The position numbers and the translations under genes were made by a program. A DNA stretch of 64,000 nucleotides from Eledone cirrhosa (Eukaryota): positions 36,084,001-36,148,000 of the forward strand of contig OZ024751.1 in NCBI GenBank assembly GCA_964016885.1, in the 5' to 3' direction. The notes beneath the pieces were generated by a model. That model had not been told where the DNA came from and did no database searches. It saw only the letters and a program-made list of their open reading frames with translations. Of this stretch, positions 14,750-58,952 are shown piece by piece; the stretch's first letter is position 1, and each line of letters starts with the position of its first letter.

Positions 14750-15265
14750 ATAACTCGAGTAATGCCACCGCTTGATCCTTAAGAATGAGCATCATGGACG
14801 TGATTTTTTAGTCCAGCCATGGACTTACCTGTGGCCAGCAATGCCGTGCACTGCAAAAATATGTAATATATCAAGCGATGACTGTGCTTGAAGCTTTTTT
14901 AAGTGAGCCAATCCCACTCTCTGAACATCAAATACATTTGCCCAAAAAGATAAACTGGTCTACATCATTGGGTGCATATGAAGTCATAGGTTTTATATCA
15001 GAATGACTTTCTCCAAGAGAGATATCTTAATGAAGACTAGGAGTATCTCGTTCCACAAAAGCAACAAAATCTTTATTGGATGGCCGTTGACTCTCCTGAG
15101 TTCTTCCGCCATTTGGCGGGTCTTGCTTTTCATCCCTCAATGTGTCCAAAATCACCCTCCTCACCAAACAAGCTTTGCGGTGTTGCCAGTTTAGTCGCCG
15201 ATGACCCGACCATACACAGGTTGTACTGGGTTACATATTACCAGCAGCACTAACGAATGACCTGA
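14750..15265 (-). mobile_element. Old RTE 5'-UTR-derived element, related to the full-length LINE
   Basis: Collinear shared blocks with the LINE 5' UTR: gcaatgcc(t)gtgc (~14838), ccaatcccactctctga (~14907), ggttttatatc (~14989). Possible match to the 3' motif at ~14755 (tcgagtaatgcca). Confidence 0.55.
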
Positions 15266-33484: not shown

Positions 33485-33510
33485 TGCATACATACATATA
33501 TATATATACA

Positions 33511-33573
33511 TGATGGCTGCCCCCTCGTTATCGAGTATGGCCATTGCACAATAAAAAAAAAAAAAAAAAAAAA

Positions 33574-33627
<54 letters not shown>

Positions 33628-33657
33628 GAAAAAAAAAAAAAAAAAAAAAAAGGGAAA

Positions 33658-33694
<37 letters not shown>

Positions 33695-33816
33695 TATACA
33701 TATATATATACATACACATATATATACACACACACATACATACACATACATACATATATACACACACACATACATACACATACACTCACACATATATACA
33801 CACATACATTAATAAC

Positions 33817-33856
<40 letters not shown>

Positions 33857-33935
33857 GCAATAATATTAATAACGACAACAACAACAATAATATACATATT
33901 CATATATATATACACACACACGCACGCACATAAGC

Positions 33936-33973
<38 letters not shown>

Positions 33974-36900
33974 GATAGCAACTAACAGTGCTGCGATCGA
34001 ATGTGGCTTTTTAGCCCAGCCAATGATCTAAAATGTCTTGCACAGAGTCGGCAACCAAAACATTTACTGGGAATAGTCGGCTGTGGTTGGAGTTCGTGTA
34101 CTTTTGCATGTCGCTTGAGTCCTCCTGCTGATTTACATTCTCTACCACATGTTTGGCAAGCATGATGAGTAGCATCTCCAACAGCAGCCTGGTAGTCAAC
34201 CACTGGTCTTACTTTATGACTGCGAAGATGACTTTCGAGTCCAGCTTTGCTTAGGCAGAGTCTCGCACAGACGCTGCATGTCAGAAACATAGGAGGACCC
34301 TCGCCGTCTGGAAGTGCAACAGCAATACCCTTCCTCACGTCCCGCTTTACTTTCTCGTGTGCGATTCGAGATGCCTCAAAGGCAACTTTTCCCTCATATA
34401 CAGTCTTTCTCCATTTATTACGATCAGCAGCAATATTTTCCCATGTATCAGCAGAGATGTTAGCGTCTCTCAGAGAGGCCTTCAAGGAATCCTTATACCT
34501 CTTTTTTGGTTTATGTGGCGGTCGTTTTCCTTTAACCAACTCTCCATAGAAGAGTTGTTTTGGTATTCTAGAATCCTTCATCCTGGCAAGGTGACCACTC
34601 CAACGGAGTCGCTGCTTAAGCACAAGAGCTTCTATACTGTCACACATAGAGCTTTCCAAAATCTCGACATCACTGATGTGGTCCCTCCAGCGAACGCCAT
34701 GTATCCGTCTGAGACACATCTGATGGAAACGCTCCAATTGCCTAAGGTGGCGTCGATATGTGACCCAGGTCTCGCAGGCATAAAGAAGACAAGAGAGTAC
34801 ACATGCCCTGTACACCCTTACCTTTGTCCTCCTGCATATGTCTCGCCGACCCCAGAGTCGCCTTTCTAGCTTTCCGAAAGCATCACTTGCTTTCCTAATC
34901 CTAAGTGAAATTTCACCGTCAAGGTTGCCGTATCGATTGACAGTGCTTCCCAGGTAGACAAACTGATCAACCACTCCAAGTCGTTTGCCATACACATAGA
35001 TGTTTGGTTCAGTGTACTGCCTACCAGGTGCAGGTTGGTACATGACGACGGTTTTCTTGAGACTGACAGTCAAACCCAGGGCAGTGCAAGCGTCAGAAAA
35101 TACATTCAAAATGTGCTGCATATCACTCTCTGTGTGCGCTACAAGATCGCAATCATCTGCATACAAGAGGTCTCTTATGACCGATGTAAATACCTTTGTC
35201 TTCGCAGCAAAGCGCCTGATGTTAAATATGCTGCCTGAGGTTCGATATCGGATGTAAACACCATGCTCGCAATTCCTGAATGCAACACAGAAAACCATTG
35301 CAAAGTATATGGCAAACAGGGTCGGTGCTGGAATATCCCCCTGTTTCACTCCATTTTTTACTGAGATAGGCTCCGACATGTTACCTCCGACATTAACCCA
35401 AGCCTTCATGTCGTCATGGAAAGACCTAACTAAAGCAAGGAACTTATCAGGGCAACCAAGTTTCTGGAGAATCTTCCATAATGCATCTCTGTTGACAGTA
35501 TCGAAAGCCTTTGTCAGATCGACAAAAACCTGATACAGATCCAAGCCCTGTTCAATGCACTTCTCCTGGAGCTGTCTAGCTGAGAAGATCATATCAGTAG
35601 TGCCGCGTCCAACACGAAAACCAGATTGACTTTCAGGAAGGACACAATCTGCAATGTGTGTCAGCAGACGGTCCAGAAGCACCCTACATAAAACTTTCCC
35701 CACGACAGAAAGCAATGATATACCTCTGTAGTTCCCACAATAATTCCTGTTACCCTTTCCCTTGTACAAGACCACCATTACTGCATCTCTCCAGTCCTCA
35801 GGCACGGATTCATTAGCCCATATCCTTCCAAACAGAGAGTGAAGATGTTGCAGGAGTCTCTCACCACCATATTGTAGGAGCTCAGCATGTATGCCATCCA
35901 TACCTGGAGATCTTCCACTGTTCAGCTTCGAAATAGCCACTGCAACCTCCACAAGTGTCGGAGGTTCTGCGAGAGCTACTTTCACAGGACTTTCCGGAAT
36001 GAGATTGAGGAAATCTTCACTGACGACAGACGGCTGATTCAAAAGATCATCAAAGTGCTCTCGCCACCTTCGTAGAATTCCCTGTGAGTCACGAAGAAGT
36101 TCTTTGCCATCCCTGCTGCGAATCGGTGTCACCAGAGAAGAAGACGGTCCATAAACCTCACGCAAGAGACTGTACAACAGCTTTGTGTTATTGCAATCAG
36201 ACGCAGTTTGTATCTCACCAGCCTTCTCACTCCACCACTGATCCTTCATCTGAGAAAGACTCCGCCTAACACGTGATTTTACATCCCTGAGCTCCTCATG
36301 CAACGTATTCCTCTCCTGTGGTTTTGCCGTCAAGTAGCGTGACAGAGCACGCCTCTTATCAGCCAACAAGTCTTCTATATGTACATCATTCTCATTAAAC
36401 CAGTCCTGATGTTTTCTCTGCACCAATCCCAGAACACGCCTGCCTACATCATAAACCGACTTTTTAAGGGTCGGCCAATCCTCACCAAGATCTGCAGCCT
36501 GCATCTCTTCTTCCAATGTCCTCTTCACATTTTTATCCTTAAGACGAGCAGCATTCAATCTTTTGGGCAGGGTAACACCAGGAGCCCGGATTTTACGTTT
36601 GGTGATTAGATTCACTTTTGCGCGCACCAGGCGGTGGTCCGTCCAGCACTCAGCTCCACGAAGAACACGAACACACTGCACATCCTGTCTGTCACGCATC
36701 CTGACTAGGACGTAGTCCAAAAGATGCCATTCCTTAGATGCAGGATGCATCCATGTGGTCTTGAATTTGTTCTTTTGTTGGAACATGGTGTTGGTAACAC
36801 ACAGATCCAGCTCCTCACACATCTGCAGCAAGAGCATACCATTGCTGTTACACTTTCCCACCCCATGCCTTCCGATTACATTCCATGTGTTAAAATCCCT

Positions 36901-37535
36901 ACCCACTCTAGCATTAAAGTCACCAAGCACGATGACTTTGTCTGCCTGAGGGATATTTCTTAAAACACCTTTCAAGGCATGGTAAAAGGACAGTTTTTCT
37001 TCATCGACAGAATTCATAGTTGGAGCATACACACTCACCAGGGTAGCATATCTTCCCTTGTCCAGCGGAACTCTCATGGACATAAGACGCTCACTAATCC
37101 CCACTGGGAATTCTTCTAATTTATTCACCAGTACAGTCTTAACAGCAAATCCCACCCCAGCCTCTCTTCTGGTTCCTTCATCTCTTCCTTTCCAGAAGAA
37201 TGTATATTCTCCACAAAATTCCGCAAGATGACCATCTCCAGCTAACCTCGTCTCAGACAAAGCCACGATGTCAAGATCGTAACGTCGAAGCTCCTTCGCA
37301 ACAAGAGCGGTCCTTCGTTCAGGACGCTCCAAAGAATCCCCGTCAAGCAGCGTCCGTACGTTCCAGCAGCCAAGACTAAATGCCCTGTTTGGCTCTATTA
37401 CAATGGCACGATGACGGGCGGGCCCAGGTTGTGATAACTTGGGGCCCCTGCCCTTATTGCCAATGATCTCTTTTGTTCCAGAACCCAAATTGGCAATTAT
37501 CTCGTTTACATTGTTCTGGAACATCATTGAATTGG

Positions 37536-37572
<37 letters not shown>

Positions 37573-37577
37573 TAATA

Positions 37578-37612
<35 letters not shown>

Positions 37613-37915
37613 ACACTATTAATAATTATTAATGCACTCGTGCAATGCCTGTGCGTGACGAATATTTTTAAAGTGAGGAAAGACTGTGCACTGAACCAAT
37701 CCCACTCTCTGAGCGACAGTAGCTATAACCCGAAAAGAAGAAAAGATCAACATCATCGGTAACTACTGAGCCGCAGGTTTTATATCGGAGTTAACCCAGT
37801 TTCCTGAGATGCCTTCTCCTAGAAGAATACCCTGACATGGGCTAGGGGTTCTTCACTCCCAGTGGTTTAACTGCGCGATCGGGCATCCAGCCCGATTATT
37901 TCTATGTCCCCGCGC
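33511..37915 (-). mobile_element. Full-length RTE LINE (5' UTR ~37528-37915, ORF, microsatellite-rich 3' UTR, conserved 3' terminal motif 33511-33549)
   Basis: Both ends are defined by homology with the short copy at 57904-58240. The 5' UTR carries an RTE-type 'ctaggagaaggc..ctc' motif. The 3' end has a ctcg-ataa-cgag stem-loop followed by a TA/TATG microsatellite tail. No TSD could be resolved. Confidence 0.88.
33982..37527 (-). CDS. RTE-clade non-LTR retrotransposon ORF (1181 aa): APE endonuclease + reverse transcriptase + 3 C-terminal C2H2 zinc fingers
   Basis: Uninterrupted ORF. APE motifs WNVRTL, ALSETR, VYAPT, LGDFNARVG, LLDYVL, TDHRLV. RT motifs YRGISLLSVVGK, FVDLTKAFDTVNR, GVKQGD, LLYADD, FVYLGS. 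N-terminal 'RPERRTALVAKELRRYDLDIVALSETR' is typical of RTE/BovB-like elements. Fingers: CSVC..HLRSH, CQTC..HAKVH, CRLC..HIRSQH. Confidence 0.97.
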   Translation of the reverse strand: MMFQNNVNEIIANLGSGTKEIIGNKGRGPKLSQPGPARHRAIVIEPNRAFSLGCWNVRTLLDGDSLERPERRTALVAKELRRYDLDIVALSETRLAGDGHLAEFCGEYTFFWKGRDEGTRREAGVGFAVKTVLVNKLEEFPVGISERLMSMRVPLDKGRYATLVSVYAPTMNSVDEEKLSFYHALKGVLRNIPQADKVIVLGDFNARVGRDFNTWNVIGRHGVGKCNSNGMLLLQMCEELDLCVTNTMFQQKNKFKTTWMHPASKEWHLLDYVLVRMRDRQDVQCVRVLRGAECWTDHRLVRAKVNLITKRKIRAPGVTLPKRLNAARLKDKNVKRTLEEEMQAADLGEDWPTLKKSVYDVGRRVLGLVQRKHQDWFNENDVHIEDLLADKRRALSRYLTAKPQERNTLHEELRDVKSRVRRSLSQMKDQWWSEKAGEIQTASDCNNTKLLYSLLREVYGPSSSLVTPIRSRDGKELLRDSQGILRRWREHFDDLLNQPSVVSEDFLNLIPESPVKVALAEPPTLVEVAVAISKLNSGRSPGMDGIHAELLQYGGERLLQHLHSLFGRIWANESVPEDWRDAVMVVLYKGKGNRNYCGNYRGISLLSVVGKVLCRVLLDRLLTHIADCVLPESQSGFRVGRGTTDMIFSARQLQEKCIEQGLDLYQVFVDLTKAFDTVNRDALWKILQKLGCPDKFLALVRSFHDDMKAWVNVGGNMSEPISVKNGVKQGDIPAPTLFAIYFAMVFCVAFRNCEHGVYIRYRTSGSIFNIRRFAAKTKVFTSVIRDLLYADDCDLVAHTESDMQHILNVFSDACTALGLTVSLKKTVVMYQPAPGRQYTEPNIYVYGKRLGVVDQFVYLGSTVNRYGNLDGEISLRIRKASDAFGKLERRLWGRRDICRRTKVRVYRACVLSCLLYACETWVTYRRHLRQLERFHQMCLRRIHGVRWRDHISDVEILESSMCDSIEALVLKQRLRWSGHLARMKDSRIPKQLFYGELVKGKRPPHKPKKRYKDSLKASLRDANISADTWENIAADRNKWRKTVYEGKVAFEASRIAHEKVKRDVRKGIAVALPDGEGPPMFLTCSVCARLCLSKAGLESHLRSHKVRPVVDYQAAVGDATHHACQTCGRECKSAGGLKRHAKVHELQPQPTIPSKCFGCRLCARHFRSLAGLKSHIRSQHC

Positions 37916-38367
37916 AAAAAAAAAAAAAAAAAAAAAAAATTACTTATTGACACTTATACGTACGACATACACACACACGCATACATATGCGTGCACACAG
38001 CAACACTCACACACACAACAAACACACACACACGCTACTCTACTCACTTACACGCACACACACACATATATATATATATATTACCGTCATTACTGATACA
38101 AGATTACCAGATTATGTCAACTGTTGACTTTCAAGAGTTTGTATAGTTGAAGCCGATCGTATTACAGTCCAGTATTACTATAATTGCTTTACAGCATAGA
38201 GTTATGGCTCTCCACGGAGTCAACAAAAGAGAGTACCAGTGATGCGCTGGCCAGTCGCTGGATCCGTGCCAAAAGCAGAAAAATTATTATTAAAGTTGTT
38301 CTTAAGGTCGCTGGTGATGGTGATGGCGACGGCGGTGGCGGTGGTGGCAGTTGATGTTGTTGTTCTG

Positions 38368-38410
<43 letters not shown>

Positions 38411-38448
38411 GTTATTTTGAGTTTTTCTTTTCCTTTCTTTTTTTTTCT

Positions 38449-38481
<33 letters not shown>

Positions 38482-39372
38482 CCCCTTCCCTTTTCTTTTT
38501 TCTTTTCCCTTCCTACATACATGCATACATACATACATATATATATATACATACATGCATACATACATACATACATATATACATACATGCATACATACAT
38601 ACATACATATATATATACATACATGCATACATACATACATATATATATACATACATGCATACATACATACATACATATATATATAAGACGAGTTACTGTA
38701 TACTCTGATTCTCCTTAATTCAAAAGGTGCCTGGCACTGACTGACGAAATATTTTGTACTTGCGAACCGTAAACATACAACGAAATATACAATATTTAAA
38801 CATATCTACTAAAATATTTAATCTGATAAACCTTTATAGAGAGCGCCATATAAAACGCCCCATTGGAGCATAAATTATCAATGTTTTGTCCAGAAACATG
38901 GCTAATTTCTTGTAGTTTGCCGTCGAATGGTTTCTAGTGTTACTAAAATTAGTTGTTCTACCACACGTAATCATCTGCTGTGAGAATTAAGTAAATCATA
39001 AATAAGATTTTATGTGATAGTCATTGTGTCTGAATAACTATTGAAAAGATTTAGTTTCGCCATGTTAAACCCACACATACTGTCTACGTTAAGTCAGTTA
39101 ATGAATTAAAGATACGTTTATTTAATTTATAAACTGCAATTTGAGATAACTAGACTACGCATTCATCTACATATTTTATTGAATATGAATATTCAATGCC
39201 CCGGAGGGGTGGTTTGATACAGAACCGACAATTACGAGTAGAATTAAAAGTGCATGTCTGTTATATCTAAGAGAACAAATACAAAGATCCCCCCAAACTC
39301 ACACAAGCGTATATTCATAGATATATTCATAGATATATTCATAGAAACACACACACACACACATATATATAT

Positions 39373-57903: not shown

Positions 57904-58240
57904 CGCGGGGACATAGAAATAGTCGGGCTGGACACCCGATCGCGCGGTTAAACCACTGGGAGTGAAGGACCCCTAGCCTTTCTCAGGGCATTTTTCTAGG
58001 AGAAGGCAACTCAAGAAACTGGGATGACTCCAATATAAAACCTGCGGCTCAGTAGTTACCGATGATTATTGATCTTTTCTTCTTTTCGGGTTATAGCTAC
58101 TGTCGCTCAGAGAGTGGGATTGGCTCAGTGCACAGTCTTTCCTCACTTTAAAAATATCTTCACGCACAGGCATTGCACGATAGAATTAATAATGGTATAT
58201 CGTGCAATGGCCATACTCGATAACGAGGTGGCAGCCATCA
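57904..58240 (+). mobile_element. Non-autonomous bipartite RTE derivative (5' UTR + 3' terminus, ORF deleted)
   Basis: 57904-58180 matches the reverse complement of ~37638-37914 (roughly 90-93% by manual count). 58202-58240 matches the reverse complement of 33511-33549 with one mismatch. Followed by a long (TA/TACA)n tail. Confidence 0.92.

Positions 58241-58952
<712 letters not shown>

Follow-up and report, generated by a model that had tools for sequence, protein, structure and literature searches.

The DNA analysed here (the window) is a 64,000-nt stretch of contig OZ024751.1 from the 3.0 Gb genome of an animal, Eledone cirrhosa (positions 36,084,001 to 36,148,000, forward strand). It carries on its minus strand a copy of a long interspersed element (LINE) of the RTE type that we call family A. 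Comparison of family A with its sister families indicates that two short segments, one in the 5' untranslated region (UTR) and one at the 3' terminus, likely pair with one another, forming a predicted RNA helix that is conserved across these families. We think it fairly probable that the two arms form a helix of 10–14 bp joining the 5'UTR and the 3' terminus into one structure, which the element's own protein would recognise for reverse transcription.

A sequence-only reading of the window had pointed out that two 8-nt motifs, at 37640-37647 and 33542-33549, are reverse complements, and we found this to be correct, with the stem extending to 10 bp including one G-U pair (Table 1). The bare match is no proof of pairing, because comparison of the 390-nt UTR with the terminal 55 nt yields an 8-nt complement in 426 of 2000 shuffles of the UTR. 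The same reading had placed the upstream motif in the 5'UTR and spoken of pairing between the 5' and 3' ends of the RNA. The motif is internal to the element: the 5' arm closes a conserved ~270-nt domain of the 5'UTR ~115 nt before the ATG (37527), and full-length family A copies start ~1.64 kb upstream of the ATG, of which the window copy reaches only ~38514.

Sister families sharing the 5' domain and the 3' motif turned up in the flanks of the loci that we fetched. B and E are short elements lacking the open reading frame (ORF), E having one copy in the window; C is a LINE, D comprises both a short family and a LINE, and F is a single copy. The covariation table was built from the majority arms of five lineages (A, represented by its older LINE, B, C, D and E) over stem positions 4-11, leaving out the one-copy F. 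A-short, the ORF-less derivative of family A, was excluded from both permutation tests described here as not independent of A. In all 40 of the 40 cells the bases pair (36 Watson-Crick and 4 G-U), compared with 118 of 160 cells when non-cognate arms are combined and 11–21 of 40 when the register is slid by 1–3 pairs. The cognate assignment of arms is the best among the 120 permutations. Both sides of the stem have changed at six of the eight positions, namely 4 (T-A/C-G), 7 (A-T/T-A/C-G), 8 (C-G/T-A), 9 (G-C/T-A), 10 (A-T/T-A) and 11 (G-C/T-A). Duplex energies calculated from single copies of six lineages agree, the cognate sum of -98.6 kcal/mol (mean -60.1) being the best of 720 assignments. 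Because both arms lie within the same autonomous copy, 3.2–4.1 kb apart, in A, C (L321, L324) and D (L386), the arm changes are not explicable by a local hairpin. The sequence-only reading had suggested pairing between the 5'UTR and the 3' end and had named covariation as its test; on that test, across sister families, the suggestion is supported.

Several points weigh against this interpretation. The lineages are related, and the permutation figures therefore overstate independence. The arms of C, E and F are alike, F's 5' arm pairs equally well with C's 3' arm, and D is mismatched at stem position 1. The very active young subfamily of A has the weakest stem, with a duplex energy of -12.8 versus -18.2 with the short family's arm. 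When the whole RNA of A, C or D is folded to minimum energy, 0 pairs of the helix form, and forcing it costs 3.4, 0.5 and 1.7 kcal/mol, respectively. One-off deletions were found in five of 59 LINE copies, at scattered sites, each beginning and ending inside the ORF. The short families were found through a conserved-domain search, and clustering of their junctions near the arms may reflect selection for shortness. Lastly, the vertebrate pairings described below were judged by eye on consensus fragments (supplement of PMC5786205; papers given by PMC number are cited here from partial texts). As to family C, its 5' arm was sought once its 3' arm was known, and the complement was found without the expected letters having been set down beforehand. 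Its first loci were mostly one truncated copy within a larger repeat, which biases its 3' majority and accounts for the G-U at position 8; the full-length C copies came from separate searches.

The absence of the helix from the minimum-energy folds and the chance-level 8-mer would both fit a functionless complement inherited by accident from one ancestor. We find this hardly credible given that six positions have changed on both sides, between families whose ORFs share no more than ~35-70% identity, depending on the segment. Complementarity alone cannot separate RNA from DNA, and the pairing could in principle act on DNA, through fold-back of the cDNA or strand annealing during second-strand synthesis. 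This is very unlikely in our judgement: all 4 non-Watson-Crick cells of the 40 are G-T on the sense strand, where the cDNA strand would have A-C mismatches. RNA is favoured over DNA because these departures are of the G-U type on the sense strand.

The ORF of the window copy matches Pfam RVT_1 (5e-30) and Exo_endo_phos (2e-11), while matches to zinc fingers are weak and below curated cut-offs. Three C2H2 fingers can be seen at its C-terminal end (window 33982-34330), a motif relatively rare in RTE elements (PMC9115989). Further traits are RTE-like: one ORF with an N-terminal APE domain followed by reverse transcriptase, a short-tandem-repeat 3' tail and frequent 5' truncation. By eye and unscored, the 5'UTR domain and 3' terminus resemble published RTE families (PMC5786205 supplement). 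A further 29 copies are ~100% identical over 526 nt of the 3' ORF end, and exact genome copies of the young subfamily's diagnostic motifs number 784 (5') and 536 (3'). Judged on its sequence, family A is an RTE-type LINE, young and present in many copies. The UTRs are part of the element, since 30 of 30 family A 3' ends carry the terminal motif, the (ATT)n-Tn run and a 3'UTR of microsatellites. We also considered a LINE inserted in the loop of a host short interspersed element (SINE) with the cassettes as target duplication; this was ruled out, as both ends recur with the ORF (30/30 3' ends and most 5' ends). No credible upstream ORF1 of at least 150 aa occurs in the window copy, which is 5'-truncated at ~38514. 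Rfam searches of four loci returned no self-cleaving 5' ribozyme family at E values up to 1, although the models may miss one; the only matches were to miRNAs and snoRNAs, driven by microsatellites and all below gathering scores. In some copies of the young LINE (L082, L089, L096, L104) part of the 5'UTR stands in reverse orientation. 5'-inverted LINE copies are known from twin priming in L1.

The window also holds a short ORF-less element whose ends are 92% and 93% identical to the two LINE ends. The perfect 12-bp hairpin stem that the sequence-only reading described in this copy is present (z -4.34, 0 of 200 shuffles), with a loop of 15 nt (span 39) and not of 17. The copy is the 3' half of a ~600-nt family, A-short, in most members of which the loop is 29 nt. 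Among 30 sampled A-short copies both arms are present in 28 and the same loop length in 26. Exact motif copies number 2,209 for A-short and 23,984 for B-short. Contigs from a second organism contain the short family too, at low depth, and were left out of the evidence. With many dispersed copies, one junction and its own tail, the short element is a bipartite non-autonomous RTE amplified as a unit. Such derivatives are an established kind (PMC5786205; also PMC7245038 and PMC4844689). In a tree of the shared domain, built from the copies in which the script found its anchor, 9 short and 25 LINE copies separate with support of 100/99 (the bootstrap not being fully settled) and with nine columns that are diagnostic; identity averages 93.6% among the short and 98.0% among the LINE copies. 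A search for the ancestral 3' end of A gave a single copy (L418), old and 5'-truncated, with an ORF 80% identical, the short family's 3' arm and no cassette. Because A-short is a separate, more diverged clade with a single cassette-free junction, and L418 is cassette-free as well, we conclude that A-short arose once from an older subfamily and that the cassettes came later.

The junctions of the other short families were read by eye. In D-short the deletion spans almost exactly the stretch between the start and stop codons, and B, E and F seem to retain a portion of the final zinc finger. No parent LINE turned up for B, E or F; for B, 30 of the 23,984 matches were examined, with no upstream ORF among the matches listed. 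L291 and L294 represent a secondary, shorter deletion variant of E-short in which both arms are kept. A structured ~200-nt 5' head is common to short families A, B and E (L008, L019, L028; window 15100-15265), and the young LINE A is without it, having a different ~1.25-kb 5' region in its place, which suggests from sequence that the young LINE's 5'UTR was replaced. No tRNA or 5S match indicative of an RNA polymerase III small-RNA head was found in three loci with the full head. A ribozyme in this head is possible, and Rfam gave no match to it.

On our favoured reading, recognition of the helix by the element's protein, the protein would after translation bind its own RNA, in which the helix would set the conserved 5' domain beside the terminal stem-loop; in the predicted fold of the short RNA these two do lie side by side. 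The joined ends would serve as a single handle for target-primed reverse transcription. Should both halves be required by the protein, amplification would be limited to deletions retaining both arms, helped by their shortness; with the arms so near one another, it may also be easier for the reverse transcriptase to jump the loop in a rare founding event. The main rival is a different function, though we hold it to be rather unlikely: the helix may be real and serve translation or RNA stability, closing the RNA into a loop that brings the 3' end beside the start codon in a transcript with no poly(A), so that the short families would keep it only by way of their founding jump. The position of the 5' arm, which in A, C and D precedes the ATG by ~60-115 nt, is consistent with such a role, as is the ending of the elements in a microsatellite, not poly(A). 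However, the non-coding families, at thousands of copies, keep stems of 11–14 bp that equal or exceed those of the LINEs, and bipartite SINE tails with other heads retain both parts (PMC5786205, PMC4844689).

The sequence-only reading had further proposed that the ORF could be deleted repeatedly by template switching or recombination between two direct microsatellite cassettes. The cassettes themselves, an A-run plus (AAT)n on the forward strand of each UTR (Table 1), are as described and are family features, the run ending 30 of 30 3' ends. The proposed joins were sought in samples, not in a genome-wide count. On the 5' side we took the first 89 position-ordered copies (30 + 59) of the young 5' motif, of 784, on one contig (C1), and 0 of 89 were joined to the 3' motif. 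Of these copies, 72 run on into the ORF, and the remaining 17 are interrupted at the (ATT)n run by other sequence, the ORF resuming later in six. On the 3' side, 0 of 30 young 3' ends (of 536) have a 5' arm within 1.5 kb, and 28 of 30 follow an ORF stop. The derivative junctions, which had been expected at the cassettes, come down in A-short to one that is cassette-free: no T-run or (ATT)n array occurs in the loop of any of 30 sampled copies, and the family forms one clade, set apart by the 9 diagnostic columns and older than the sampled LINEs. Nor do the C and D LINEs have cassettes, though the helix is present in both and D has a short derivative; their UTR stretches inside the arms are short. 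As a recurrent route the proposal is thus largely refuted, and we consider it very improbable. In its favour, both UTRs of family A carry the cassettes as direct repeats. A-short is also joined within an AT-rich tract, ~7 nt beyond the present-day 5' cassette, and AT-rich microhomology may have guided that single old founding event. In 8 of 30 young 3' UTRs the sequence separating two (ATT)n runs is missing, which slippage between the runs may explain. The middle A subfamily has an 11-bp Watson-Crick stem, of which the youngest has lost one pair and turned another into G-U where the T-run advanced. The cassettes are later, family-A-specific microsatellite growth in both UTRs, and on the 3' side the T-run has started to wear away the helix.

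Homologous arms can be followed, by eye, into published vertebrate consensus sequences (PMC5786205). In the alligator LINE RTE-3_AMi the end of the homologous domain and the terminus pair over 10 positions in the same register, and in turtle RTE-1_PSi 9 positions pair in that register with one change on both sides. In WALLSI1/1A and platypus MonoRep87A/B the stem spans the junction, again in the same register, and BovB versus BOVA2, RTE1_LA and RTE-11_AMi show similar end-to-end complementarity with different letters. By eye, the 5' domain and 3' motif of the window element resemble RTE-3_AMi, RTE-1_PSi and RTE-3_PM, and its short derivative is built like RTESINE2/WALLSI3, Bov-A and RTE-N, with part of the 5'UTR fused to the 3' end, the ORF deleted and a microsatellite tail (PMC5786205). 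The available part of that paper (Kojima 2018) describes no base pairing or stem, nor the covarying helix between the ends. Among cephalopod elements, RTE-2_OV (1109 aa, compared with 1181 aa in family A) is alike by description in its single ORF with endonuclease, reverse transcriptase and C2H2 finger and in its microsatellite-rich 3'UTR, and pairing of its UTRs goes unmentioned in the available text (PMC9115989). Plant RTE LINEs and Au-like SINEs share a conserved 3'-end RNA structure with compensatory changes, proposed for recognition by the reverse transcriptase (PMC6007223). That hairpin is local within the 3' end, unlike in family A, where the partner strand lies 3–4 kb upstream in the 5'UTR. 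R2 SIDEs are likewise internally deleted non-LTR derivatives that keep both ends, for which a template jump or recombination was proposed (Eickbush and Eickbush 2012, PMC3414825); they differ in being rare and of another clade, and end pairing is not proposed in the part of that paper available.

The cyclisation helices of flaviviruses and plant viruses are short and long-range, show compensatory changes and bring the RNA ends together for polymerase or ribosome; with the family A helix they share an analogy only, no homology. LINEs with stringent recognition are thought to recognise structure in the 3' tail only.

Both the LINE and its short derivative belong to kinds of element already known; the helix is a prediction with good support, and the microsatellite mechanism is unsupported. 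We found no published report of a 5'-3' helix in RTE elements in a literature search of partial coverage, with patents and Repbase reports outside it, and the helix is probably unpublished. Whether the RTE clade in general recognises its RNA through a composite handle closed by such a helix, its register kept all the way from the invertebrate lineage studied here to elements of alligator, turtle, marsupials and monotremes, seems to us evenly balanced; if it does, this would explain why two-ended parasites and SINE tails keep arising from RTE and from hardly any other LINEs, and would give a design rule for templates in RTE-based gene writing. RTE-1_MD has already served as a gene writer made of two RNAs, with both cognate UTRs on its template (PMC13708176). 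Bipartite derivatives arise in few clades, from a cause called unknown by Kojima 2018 (PMC5786205); a 5'UTR-3'end helix, if true, would be a concrete and mutable answer to that question. The arm letters peculiar to each family may, in addition, account for the choice of short family that a LINE mobilises.

Table 1. Coordinates within the window of the LINE, its predicted helix arms and the short elements
Feature	Position	Strand
Family A (young subfamily), single intact ORF of 1181 aa: APE endonuclease, reverse transcriptase, three C-terminal C2H2 fingers	33982..37527	-
5' arm of the predicted long-range helix, at the 3' edge of the conserved 5'UTR domain	37638..37647	-
3' arm of the predicted helix; 10 bp with one G-U in the young subfamily, 11 Watson-Crick pairs in the older subfamily	33542..33551	-
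Conserved 3'-terminal motif with small stem-loop, followed by microsatellite tail	33510..33541	-
Conserved 5'UTR domain, common to sister families; 92% identity to the short element	37648..37916	-
5' (ATT)n-Tn cassette, expanded specifically in this lineage; other elements insert here	37536..37610	-
Microsatellite mosaic of the 3'UTR, with the 3' (ATT)n-Tn cassette (33553-~33622) at its end; shorter and cassette-free in the old copy	33552..33981	-
Further 5'UTR of the young family; window copy 5'-truncated at ~38514	37917..38514	-
A-short, 5'-truncated copy of a bipartite non-autonomous family; arms 58171-58182 and 58198-58209	57904..58242	+
E-short, copy of a second, independent bipartite family; arms ~14870-14880 and ~14766-14776, 11 pairs with one G-U	14754..15265	-

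The microsatellite tracts of these elements also receive other elements. In several copies one sequence is inserted in reverse in the (ATT)n run just after the 5' motif (L111, L123, L129, L136, L351, L370). This insert (L123:811-1416) encodes a CCHC knuckle and the end of a restriction-like endonuclease, and we take it to resemble Dong/R4 elements, which target (TAA)n. Further recurrent inserts are shared by L332, L358 and L134 and by L344, L365 and L371. The RTE families described here insert in each other's (ATGT)n tails, giving nested chains of LINEs and short elements (flanks of L091-L103 and L227-L245), and a truncated family C copy with A-short behind it lies inside a larger dispersed repeat found on many contigs (L229-L245).

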